DNA from: Escherichia coli
GTDB lineage: Bacteria; Pseudomonadota; Gammaproteobacteria; Enterobacterales; Enterobacteriaceae
Assembly: GCF_003334335.1 (NCBI RefSeq)
Contig: NZ_QOWQ01000010.1
Direction: 5' to 3' (one strand)
DNA: 64,000 bases
Every line of letters begins with the position of its first letter. The first letter of the stretch is position 1. A program made the position numbers and the translations under genes. This document shows, piece by piece, positions 37,644-40,863 of this stretch. Below the pieces are notes generated by a model. It worked only from the letters and a program-made list of their open reading frames with translations. It made no database searches and was not told the origin of the DNA.

Positions 37644-39980
37644 ATGAAGCAAATTCGTCTGCTGGCGCAGTATTATGTTGACCTGATGATGAAGTTAGGT
37701 CTGGTGCGCTTCTCAATGTTGCTGGCGCTGGCCCTCGTCGTTCTTGCCATTGTGGTACAAATGGCGGTAACCATGGTGCTGCATGGTCAGGTCGAAAGCA
37801 TTGATGTTATTCGTTCTATCTTCTTTGGTTTGCTGATTACGCCGTGGGCGGTCTACTTTCTATCGGTGGTCGTCGAGCAACTGGAGGAGTCACGACAACG
37901 TCTGTCACGGCTGGTGCAAAAACTGGAGGAGATGCGCGAGCGCGATTTGAGCCTCAACGTTCAGTTAAAAGATAATATTGCCCAGCTAAATCAGGAAATT
38001 GCCGTTCGTGAAAAAGCGGAAGCAGAACTGCAGGAAACCTTCGGCCAACTGAAAATTGAAATCAAAGAGCGCGAAGAGACACAAATTCAGCTCGAGCAGC
38101 AATCCTCATTCTTACGTTCCTTCCTTGATGCTTCACCCGACCTGGTTTTTTATCGTAACGAAGATAAAGAGTTTTCCGGCTGTAACCGCGCGATGGAGCT
38201 GCTGACCGGAAAAAGCGAAAAACAACTGGTTCACCTGAAACCTGCTGATGTTTACTCACCGGAAGCCGCCGCAAAAGTCATTGAAACCGATGAAAAAGTG
38301 TTCCGTCATAATGTGTCACTGACCTATGAACAGTGGCTGGATTACCCGGACGGGCGCAAAGCCTGCTTTGAAATCCGTAAAGTGCCGTACTACGACCGCG
38401 TGGGTAAACGTCACGGTTTGATGGGCTTTGGTCGCGACATTACCGAGCGTAAGCGGTATCAGGATGCGCTTGAACGGGCCAGCCGCGACAAAACGACGTT
38501 TATCTCCACCATCAGTCACGAATTGCGTACACCGCTGAACGGTATCGTCGGTCTGAGCCGCATTCTGCTGGATACCGAACTCACCGCCGAGCAGGAAAAA
38601 TATCTCAAGACCATCCATGTTTCGGCCGTCACGCTGGGGAATATCTTTAACGATATTATCGACATGGATAAGATGGAACGGCGCAAGGTCCAGCTTGATA
38701 ATCAACCGGTTGATTTCACCAGCTTCCTTGCCGATCTGGAAAATCTCTCCGCATTGCAGGCGCAACAAAAAGGATTGCGCTTTAACCTGGAGCCGACGCT
38801 GCCATTACCGCATCAGGTCATTACCGACGGGACGCGTTTACGGCAGATCCTGTGGAACCTCATCAGTAACGCCGTCAAATTCACCCAGCAAGGCCAGGTT
38901 ACCGTGCGCGTGCGCTACGATGAAGGCGATATGCTGCATTTTGAAGTGGAAGACTCTGGTATCGGCATTCCGCAGGATGAGCTAGATAAAATTTTCGCCA
39001 TGTATTACCAGGTGAAAGACAGTCATGGCGGTAAACCTGCCACCGGCACCGGTATTGGTCTGGCCGTTTCTCGTCGTCTGGCGAAAAATATGGGCGGCGA
39101 TATTACGGTTACCAGCGAACAGGGCAAAGGTTCAACCTTTACGTTGACGATCCACGCACCGTCGGTAGCAGAAGAGGTCGATGATGCGTTTGATGAAGAC
39201 GATATGCCTTTACCGGCGCTGAATGTGCTGCTGGTGGAAGACATTGAACTGAACGTGATTGTTGCGCGTTCTGTGCTGGAAAAATTAGGTAACAGCGTTG
39301 ATGTCGCCATGACCGGCAAGGCGGCGCTGGAGATGTTTAAACCGGGCGAATACGACCTGGTGTTGCTGGATATTCAGTTGCCAGATATGACCGGGCTGGA
39401 TATCTCTCGTGAACTGACGAAACGTTATCCGCGCGAGGATTTACCGCCGCTGGTGGCCTTAACCGCTAACGTGCTGAAAGACAAACAAGAGTACCTCAAT
39501 GCTGGAATGGATGATGTGCTGAGTAAGCCGCTTTCTGTTCCGGCGCTAACCGCGATGATCAAGAAATTCTGGGATACCCAGGATGATGAGGAGAGTACGG
39601 TGACGACAGAAGAGAACAGTAAATCAGAAGCATTGCTCGATATTCCCATGCTGGAACAGTATCTCGAACTTGTAGGACCGAAGCTGATCACCGACGGGTT
39701 AGCGGTGTTTGAGAAGATGATGCCGGGCTATGTCAGCGTGCTGGAGTCGAATCTGACGGCGCAGGATAAAAAAGGCATTGTTGAGGAAGGACATAAAATT
39801 AAAGGTGCGGCGGGGTCAGTGGGGTTACGCCATCTGCAACAGCTGGGTCAGCAAATTCAGTCTCCTGACCTTCCGGCCTGGGAAGATAACGTCGGTGAAT
39901 GGATTGAAGAGATGAAAGAAGAGTGGCGTCACGACGTAGAAGTGCTGAAAGCGTGGGTGGCAAAAGCCACTAAAAAATGA
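37644..39980 (+). CDS. arcB: aerobic respiration control sensor kinase ArcB (tripartite hybrid histidine kinase)
   Basis: 778-aa ORF with N-terminal TM helices, PAS, H-box (ISHELRTPLNGIVG), receiver domain and C-terminal Hpt. Confidence 0.95.
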   Translation: MKQIRLLAQYYVDLMMKLGLVRFSMLLALALVVLAIVVQMAVTMVLHGQVESIDVIRSIFFGLLITPWAVYFLSVVVEQLEESRQRLSRLVQKLEEMRERDLSLNVQLKDNIAQLNQEIAVREKAEAELQETFGQLKIEIKEREETQIQLEQQSSFLRSFLDASPDLVFYRNEDKEFSGCNRAMELLTGKSEKQLVHLKPADVYSPEAAAKVIETDEKVFRHNVSLTYEQWLDYPDGRKACFEIRKVPYYDRVGKRHGLMGFGRDITERKRYQDALERASRDKTTFISTISHELRTPLNGIVGLSRILLDTELTAEQEKYLKTIHVSAVTLGNIFNDIIDMDKMERRKVQLDNQPVDFTSFLADLENLSALQAQQKGLRFNLEPTLPLPHQVITDGTRLRQILWNLISNAVKFTQQGQVTVRVRYDEGDMLHFEVEDSGIGIPQDELDKIFAMYYQVKDSHGGKPATGTGIGLAVSRRLAKNMGGDITVTSEQGKGSTFTLTIHAPSVAEEVDDAFDEDDMPLPALNVLLVEDIELNVIVARSVLEKLGNSVDVAMTGKAALEMFKPGEYDLVLLDIQLPDMTGLDISRELTKRYPREDLPPLVALTANVLKDKQEYLNAGMDDVLSKPLSVPALTAMIKKFWDTQDDEESTVTTEENSKSEALLDIPMLEQYLELVGPKLITDGLAVFEKMMPGYVSVLESNLTAQDKKGIVEEGHKIKGAAGSVGLRHLQQLGQQIQSPDLPAWEDNVGEWIEEMKEEWRHDVEVLKAWVAKATKK

Positions 39981-40092
39981 CCCCGGCTAGACCGGGGTGC
40001 GCGAATACTGCGCCAACACCAGGGAAATCTTGGCTGCGCCGTAAATTATTATGATGAGTTACAAGGGCACAGCACTGTTTTTCAGGCCGCAC
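39972..40092 (-). ncRNA. arcZ: ArcZ (RyhA/SraH) Hfq-dependent small RNA, convergent with and overlapping the arcB 3' end
   Basis: Minus-strand reading GTGCGGCCTGAAAAACAGTGCTGTGCCCTTGTAACTCATCATAATAATTTACGGCGCAGCCAAGATTTCCCTGGTGTTGGCGCAGTATTCGCGCACCCCGGTCTAGCCGGGGTCATTTTTT matches my recollection of ArcZ; it ends in a GC hairpin plus U6 that overlaps the arcB stop codon. Ends are approximate. Confidence 0.75.
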
Positions 40093-40209
40093 GCAGTTAA
40101 GATAGCAAAACTTAAATGATTTGTTACATGAATCAGTTAAATGTGTGATGCGTACCATTTTTATTAAAAAAATTAATGTGTTTCAGTCAATTGCGAAAGG
40201 ATGATCACA

Positions 40210-40863
40210 ATGAAGAAAATTGGCGTAATTCTGAGCGGATGCGGCGTCTATGACGGTTCTGAAATTCATGAAGCGGTGTTGACGTTGTTAGCTATTTCAC
40301 GCAGCGGTGCGCAGGCGGTCTGCTTTGCACCGGATAAGCAGCAGGTTGATGTTATCAACCATTTAACTGGCGAAGCGATGACGGAAACGCGCAATGTGCT
40401 GATTGAAGCGGCACGAATAACGCGCGGTGAAATCCGTCCTCTGGCCCAGGCCGATGCCGCTGAACTGGATGCGTTGATTGTGCCGGGGGGGTTTGGCGCG
40501 GCGAAGAATTTAAGCAATTTTGCCAGTCTTGGTAGCGAATGCACCGTTGACCGTGAATTAAAGGCGCTGGCACAAGCGATGCATCAGGCCGGAAAACCGC
40601 TTGGTTTTATGTGTATTGCCCCGGCGATGCTGCCGAAAATTTTCGATTTCCCGCTGCGTTTGACCATCGGTACTGATATCGATACCGCAGAAGTGCTGGA
40701 AGAGATGGGCGCGGAGCATGTGCCGTGTCCTGTCGATGATATCGTGGTTGATGAAGACAATAAGATTGTCACCACCCCAGCATATATGCTGGCGCAGAAC
40801 ATTGCAGAAGCGGCGAGCGGCATTGATAAGCTGGTTTCCCGCGTGCTGGTTCTGGCTGAATGA
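40210..40863 (+). CDS. elbB: DJ-1/PfpI-family protein ElbB (YhbL)
   Basis: 217-aa product from ATG 40210 ([23 protein letters not shown]...). Confidence 0.85.

Follow-up and report, generated by a model that had tools for sequence, protein, structure and literature searches.

The ArcZ small RNA gene of Escherichia coli at its locus convergent with arcB, and a likely imprint of its U-tail on the ArcB C-terminus

The 3' end of arcB, the gene of the ArcB sensor kinase, raises the question of whether a small RNA (sRNA) gene ends on the opposite strand within the last codons of the kinase gene, and of what such an arrangement would impose on the two genes. We investigated this in a stretch of Escherichia coli DNA of 64,000 nucleotides (nt), referred to here as the window. 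A sequence-only reading had assigned minus-strand positions 39972-40092 of the window, running from GUGCGGCCUGAAAAACAGUGCUGUGCCC to CGCGCACCCCGGUCUAGCCGGGGUCAUUUUUU, to the sRNA ArcZ, had graded this as known biology and had proposed a search with the Rfam ArcZ model as a check. This search, made over the whole window with Rfam 15, was clearly positive on the minus strand: positions 40092..39985 scored 120.8 bits with RF00081, whose gathering score is 66 (E = 4.1e-27), and the match was complete, spanning model positions 1-106 of 106. The alignment of window positions 39940-40210 with E. coli K-12 MG1655 showed 100% identity across 191 aligned bases, and the K-12 arcZ gene b4450 (3350577..3350697, 121 nt, annotated as 'small regulatory RNA ArcZ') maps exactly onto window positions 40092..39972, so that the assigned coordinates are those of the K-12 annotation. 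The Rfam score together with the full identity to K-12 arcZ rules out a chance match or a wrong sRNA. We regard it as practically certain that the minus strand at 39972-40092 is the arcZ gene of E. coli at its normal locus, where it converges on arcB and shares 9 nt with it. The coordinates of the gene and of its parts are collected in Table 1.

Table 1. Coordinates in the window of arcZ, of its parts and of the arcB gene that it meets
Feature	Position	Strand	Basis
ArcZ primary transcript, 121 nt (SraH / RyhA)	39972..40092	-	RF00081 match and identity to b4450
arcB coding sequence, 778 amino acids, TGA stop 39978-39980	37644..39980	+	Open reading frame list; NCBIfam NF008302
Shared 9-nt stretch, arcB end (+) / ArcZ 3' end (-)	39972..39980	.	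Gene coordinates
Terminator hairpin ACCCCGGU-CUA-GCCGGGGU	39980..39998	-	Terminator scan and folds
ArcZ U6 tail, complement of AAA AAA (Lys777-Lys778)	39972..39977	-	Sequence, translation, terminator scan
arcZ promoter	40099..40127	-	Read from sequence
arcZ transcription start site, G	40092	-	K-12 annotation
5' stem-loop of full-length ArcZ	40033..40073	-	Rfam alignment structure line
Predicted RNase E site GA/UUU, cut between 40028 and 40027	40027..40028	-	Fits RN/WUU consensus
Processed active 56-nt ArcZ (inferred)	39972..40027	-	Cleavage rule and 56-nt size in PMC11331407
Conserved seed block CCCUGGUGUUGGCGCA, ArcZ nt 69-84	40009..40024	-	Exact match to PMC11331407 sequence

As in the K-12 annotation, ArcZ adjoins arcB on the other strand, and the two genes meet with their 3' ends. 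The K-12 gene b4450 and the window copy are alike in sequence (100% over gene and promoter), length, end points, terminator, seed, RNase E site sequence and neighbours (arcB convergent, elbB divergent); we found no difference between them, and what the window holds is that very gene, from a further copy of the E. coli chromosome. This anchors the window on that chromosome at arcB-arcZ-elbB. ArcZ processing, Hfq dependence and ArcA control are documented for the same sequence in E. coli K-12, and the gene, its overlap with arcB, its processing and the feedback on the Arc system have all been published already; the biology of the locus is not new, as the earlier grading correctly had it, and the case shows that a known sRNA can be recognised by a reader from the sequence alone. 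Of 5426 complete E. coli genomes, 5417 gave a match to the 301-nt stretch 39900-40200, 5396 of them with at least 99% identity. Less than 80% of the stretch was covered in 54 of the 5417 matching genomes, nine genomes had no match and one copy was on a plasmid; insertions, deletions or assembly problems may lie behind the partial and absent matches. A mechanical open reading frame of 62 amino acids spans ArcZ on the minus strand (39970..40158), with its ATG 66 nt upstream of the annotated transcription start site and no AUG within ArcZ, and it was discarded as a gene.

The way in which the two genes meet was then resolved base by base. The arcB open reading frame matched NCBIfam NF008302 (ArcB equivalog) with 1483 bits against a cut-off of 838, its last 125 amino acids agree in every residue with the ArcB HPt domain of the solved structures 1a0b/2a0b, and the protein ends in VLKAWVAKATKK, i.e. 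...KATKK before the stop. In K-12 the reverse-strand span of arcB (b3210) begins at 3350689, which corresponds to window position 39980 and makes the annotated overlap with arcZ 9 nt. At least 9 nt are thus complementary between arcB and ArcZ by the annotated limits, the full extent depending on where the arcB messenger RNA (mRNA) has its 3' end. A terminator scan of 39700-40400 returned a single site, on the minus strand at 39998..39980, consisting of a stem of eight pairs (six of them G-C) with the loop CUA, followed by CA and U6, the tail being CAUUUUUU. Opposite the TG of the arcB stop stands the CA spacer (39979..39978), and the last base of the stem (39980), complement of the A of TGA, is the sole hairpin base within the arcB coding sequence; the hairpin's other 18 nt (39981-39998) are found downstream of the stop. 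The overlap with the arcB stop is thus real, as well as published, and the statement that the last arcB codons and stop encode both the hairpin and the U6 tract holds for the U-tract and the stop and is imprecise for the hairpin, 39981-39998 being 3' of the stop.

We then asked how widely this geometry is kept. The exact 29-mer of the ArcZ core, which contains CCCUGGUGUUGGCGCA, was searched against one genome per species and was found unchanged in at least 120 Enterobacterales species, giving 121 sequences with the window. They come from Escherichia, Salmonella, Citrobacter, Klebsiella, Enterobacter, Pantoea, Erwinia, Rahnella, Yersinia, Photorhabdus, Xenorhabdus, Proteus, Providencia, Morganella and other genera. 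In all 121 listed sequences the hairpin is followed by T(C/T)A and this by a T-run of 5-9. Forty hairpin variants occur among the 121 listed loci and RNAfold folded a hairpin in all 40, with energies of -8.6 to -16.9 kcal/mol; the outer stem was disrupted, by loss of one or two outer pairs, in two of the 40, and stem pairs 6 and 7 showed compensatory change, alternating between G-C and A-U through G-U. The overlap geometry could be scored in the 116 listed loci with enough flanking DNA, the window included. In 98 of these 116 the arcB stop (TGA or TAA) stands exactly between the hairpin and the T-run, and the overlap, counted to the end of the T-run, is 9 nt in 12 of the 98, 10 nt in 39 and 11 nt in 47, in agreement with the published overlap of usually ten bases (PMC11331407). 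The arrangement in which the U6 and CA of ArcZ lie opposite the Lys-Lys and stop of arcB is conserved across most of the sampled Enterobacterales, and this count is what the analysis adds to the known overlap.

The 18 listed loci that deviate belong mostly to Pantoea, with Mixta, Pluralibacter, Morganella and Chimaeribacter besides. All 18 keep the T-run, and their ArcB proteins lack the Lys-Lys end. Nine have arcB ending within or right at the end of the T-run, with an overlap of 0-2 nt; in six loci of Pantoea and Mixta arcB ends 4-10 nt past the T-run, and in Chimaeribacter 58 nt past it. In Pantoea sp. 1.19 the A-run has seven As rather than eight, and arcB continues through the ArcZ hairpin for five extra codons to a TAG stop in the hairpin loop, an overlap of 23 nt that could be due to a homopolymer slip or to a sequencing error. 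Two loci (L046 and L088) look like frameshifts or alignment artefacts. Ten of the exception loci were compared with RF00081: five reached the gathering score and five fell below it (Morganella, two Mixta, Chimaeribacter and Pantoea sp. 1.19), with the exact 3' core present in all ten; the 5' half to which RF00081 is tuned is the enterobacterial one.

The two lysine codons in which the genes overlap proved to be invariant in the canonical loci. In the 98 listed loci of this kind, all 196 terminal lysine codons are AAA and none is AAG, and the third-last arcB codon ends in A in 86 of the 98 (GAA 43, AGA, a rare codon, 17, GGA 11 and ACA 8). ArcB was further searched against 1.84 billion cluster representatives, and the full-length ArcB-like proteins returned had at most 62% identity (40-62% in the top 18 matches). 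No Lys-Lys end was found in the tails of these ArcB-like proteins at up to 62% identity; past the conserved L..W(L/I) helix their tails all differ. Three of these proteins were taken with their DNA as outgroup arcB loci. They have a convergent gene about 40-85 nt downstream of arcB, an OmpR-type response regulator gene in the two loci with Pfam annotation, and none of the three gave an ArcZ match at E values of up to 1. Two outgroup loci carry a symmetrical terminator of A-tract, hairpin and T-tract common to both convergent genes (L124, 3868-3945; L125, 3811-3851); in both, arcB is followed within 42-79 nt by the convergent OmpR-family regulator gene, which is possibly arcA.

Because the codons are AAA in all 196 cases, and because the Lys-Lys end is missing both where the overlap is lost and in the outgroups, the comparison suggests that the U-tail of ArcZ, and not ArcB function, sets the last two arcB codons to AAA AAA. 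A U-rich tail is needed to end transcription and is the 3' end that Hfq usually binds, and this need would hold these codons fixed. We consider it rather probable that the Lys-Lys end of ArcB, encoded as AAA AAA, is forced by the U-tail, which ArcZ requires to terminate and probably also to bind Hfq, and that the U-tail biases the third-last codon to NNA, AGA included. We did not find an ArcZ-dictated ArcB C-terminus stated in the literature examined. If this is right, a conserved sensor kinase owes its last residues, as a by-product, to the 3' end of an sRNA rather than to protein function, and a slip of 1 nt in the homopolymer run can rewrite the ArcB tail, of which Pantoea sp. 1.19 is a likely example. 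The ArcB tail would then be an example of dual-strand constraint, a minor corollary of the known overlap.

The overlap has also to be viewed in the light of what is known of ArcZ regulation. ArcZ is expressed aerobically and in stationary phase and is repressed by ArcA-P at low oxygen; it has a Rho-independent terminator, Hfq binds its 3' part and RNase E releases a 56-nt 3' fragment, whose seed pairs with targets, activating rpoS and repressing flhDC, mutS, sdaC, tpx and others (PMC11331407). Published accounts have ArcZ lowering arcB mRNA, and arcB mRNA is thought there to destabilise ArcZ (PMC11331407, PMC4152358). With arcZ antisense to the arcB 3' end, such reciprocal lowering would close a loop of mutual negative control between ArcZ and the Arc system. 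The primary paper on this cross-regulation of arcB and ArcZ is that of Mandin and Gottesman 2010. The main text of an eLife paper on 3'-end mapping does not mention arcB. The plus strand continues past the hairpin with UGCGCGAA, which has no U-tract, and the terminator scan found no plus-strand terminator between arcB and elbB; arcB transcripts probably continue into arcZ, judging from the sequence. Such read-through would give arcB mRNA complementarity to far more of ArcZ than the nine shared coding bases.

The reciprocal repression reported in the literature, and the arcB stop kept between hairpin and T-run in the 98 of 116 listed loci from Escherichia to Photorhabdus and Providencia, would agree with a function of the 9-nt overlap itself, in which pairing between the tail and the arcB end, or polymerase collision, couples the two genes and selection keeps the overlap. 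We hold this to be rather unlikely. A duplex of nine bases with six A-U pairs is very weak, and the overlap is lost in lineages with an intact ArcZ core and terminator, where the gap is 4-10 nt (Pantoea and Mixta) or 58 nt (Chimaeribacter); in Pectobacterium carotovorum, too, there is no overlap (PMC11331407). The lack of a plus-strand terminator also makes an arcB 3' untranslated region running across arcZ more likely to be the relevant complementarity. A comparison may be made with the cis-encoded sRNA GadY, which like ArcZ is associated with Hfq, is encoded on the strand opposing the 3' region of a convergent regulator gene, gadX, and pairs with the 3' end of its mRNA; GadY, however, overlaps the gadX 3' untranslated region and directs an RNase III cleavage that stabilises the products (PMC4152358), whereas in ArcZ the overlap takes in only 9 nt of the coding end, the reported effect on arcB mRNA is destabilisation, and the main role is played in trans by the processed seed.

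Since the stem is a near-perfect palindrome that forms on both strands, and the hairpin lies directly 3' of the arcB stop, it might serve arcB and arcZ as a shared bidirectional terminator. It resembles in this respect the bidirectional intrinsic terminators described in a passage of PMC7815308 (citing Ju et al. 2019), in which one palindromic hairpin stands between converging units with an A-tract on one side. Unlike these, the arcZ terminator has no T-tract on the arcB side, the scan site is on the minus strand only, and by its sequence it terminates arcZ alone; the symmetrical arrangement is found instead in the outgroup arcB loci L124 and L125, whose terminators are of the bidirectional type. 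With a U-tract on one strand only, a shared terminator was rejected on sequence and we judge it quite improbable. It is very doubtful, finally, that the overlap is an incidental by-product of compaction without regulatory effect, ArcZ acting in trans only and Lys-Lys being kept for ArcB function: the characterised ArcZ targets are all regulated in trans and an E. amylovora arcB translational fusion was unresponsive to ArcZ, although 5' fusions are blind to 3'-end effects, but a tail kept for ArcB function would be expected to use AAG too, the ArcB proteins of lineages without the overlap and of outgroups lack the Lys-Lys end, and passages in secondary sources have ArcZ destabilising arcB mRNA.

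Nothing speaks against the identity of the gene; the points that weaken the interpretation preferred here concern the mechanism. A chromatin immunoprecipitation study of ArcA found no ArcA site upstream of arcZ (PMC3798270). The census is biased in that it required the exact 29-mer, drew on the 120 listed loci and sampled related species, so that its counts are not independent events. The one ground for proposing arcB read-through is that no plus-strand T-tract follows the hairpin.

The upstream part of the gene was analysed in the same way. The arcZ promoter comprises a -35 hexamer GTAACA (40127..40122), a spacer of 17 nt, an extended -10 TG (40107..40106) and a -10 hexamer TATCTT (40104..40099). 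Because only 8 of the 12 hexamer positions match, it falls under the threshold of a generic promoter scan and is absent from the listing of that scan. The -35 hexamer and a TTTG-TAT core are kept in 16 genera that reach from Escherichia as far as Providencia and Photorhabdus, unlike the 5' half of the ArcZ RNA, which is poorly conserved between genera. Upstream of the -35, a block TCACAnATTTnAnTGA (40128-40150, minus strand) has been kept between Escherichia and Providencia and could be a site where a regulator binds; compared by eye with the ArcA direct-repeat consensus, it gave no convincing match.

In the full-length RNA, GCUGUGCC (nt 20-27) pairs with GGCGCAGC (nt 53-60) in a 5' stem-loop that is lost on processing. 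The RNase E consensus is RN/WUU, the slash marking the cut, and the active form of ArcZ is 56 nt long (PMC11331407, citing Chao et al. 2017); a cut at GA/UUU, between 40028 and 40027, would give exactly 56 nt, 40027..39972. When folded (-20.6 kcal/mol), this 56-mer leaves the seed at its 5' end single-stranded and forms a small stem as well as the terminator hairpin.

The whole-window Rfam scan at gathering thresholds gave two matches, ArcZ and the greA leader (RF01769), the latter on the plus strand at 61737-61858 with 127.5 bits against a gathering score of 60 over the full model. No transfer RNA was found in the window. ArcZ, which had been proposed as the only RNA gene that could be supported in the window, is the only free-standing sRNA gene above the Rfam threshold; the greA leader has to be added as a second RNA element with Rfam support. 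The extra matches of a scan at E-value level were all sub-threshold, on REP elements and a terminator, and were set aside. The region 60110-60215 holds two REP/BIME-type palindromes, gcctgatgcgctacgcttatcaggcctac and taggccggataaggcgtttacgccgcatccggca, and the sub-threshold matches on the palindromes at 60133-60215 were naRNA4 (40.5 bits against 59.5) and ES036 (31.5 against 37.6). Weak matches to STnc370 and rsmX at 14087-14117 look like chance. At that position an A-tract, hairpin and T-tract, aaaaaacccgcttcggcgggttttttt, stand directly 3' of an open reading frame ending in ...RRPQFSKR, and by its sequence the element looks like a bidirectional intrinsic terminator.

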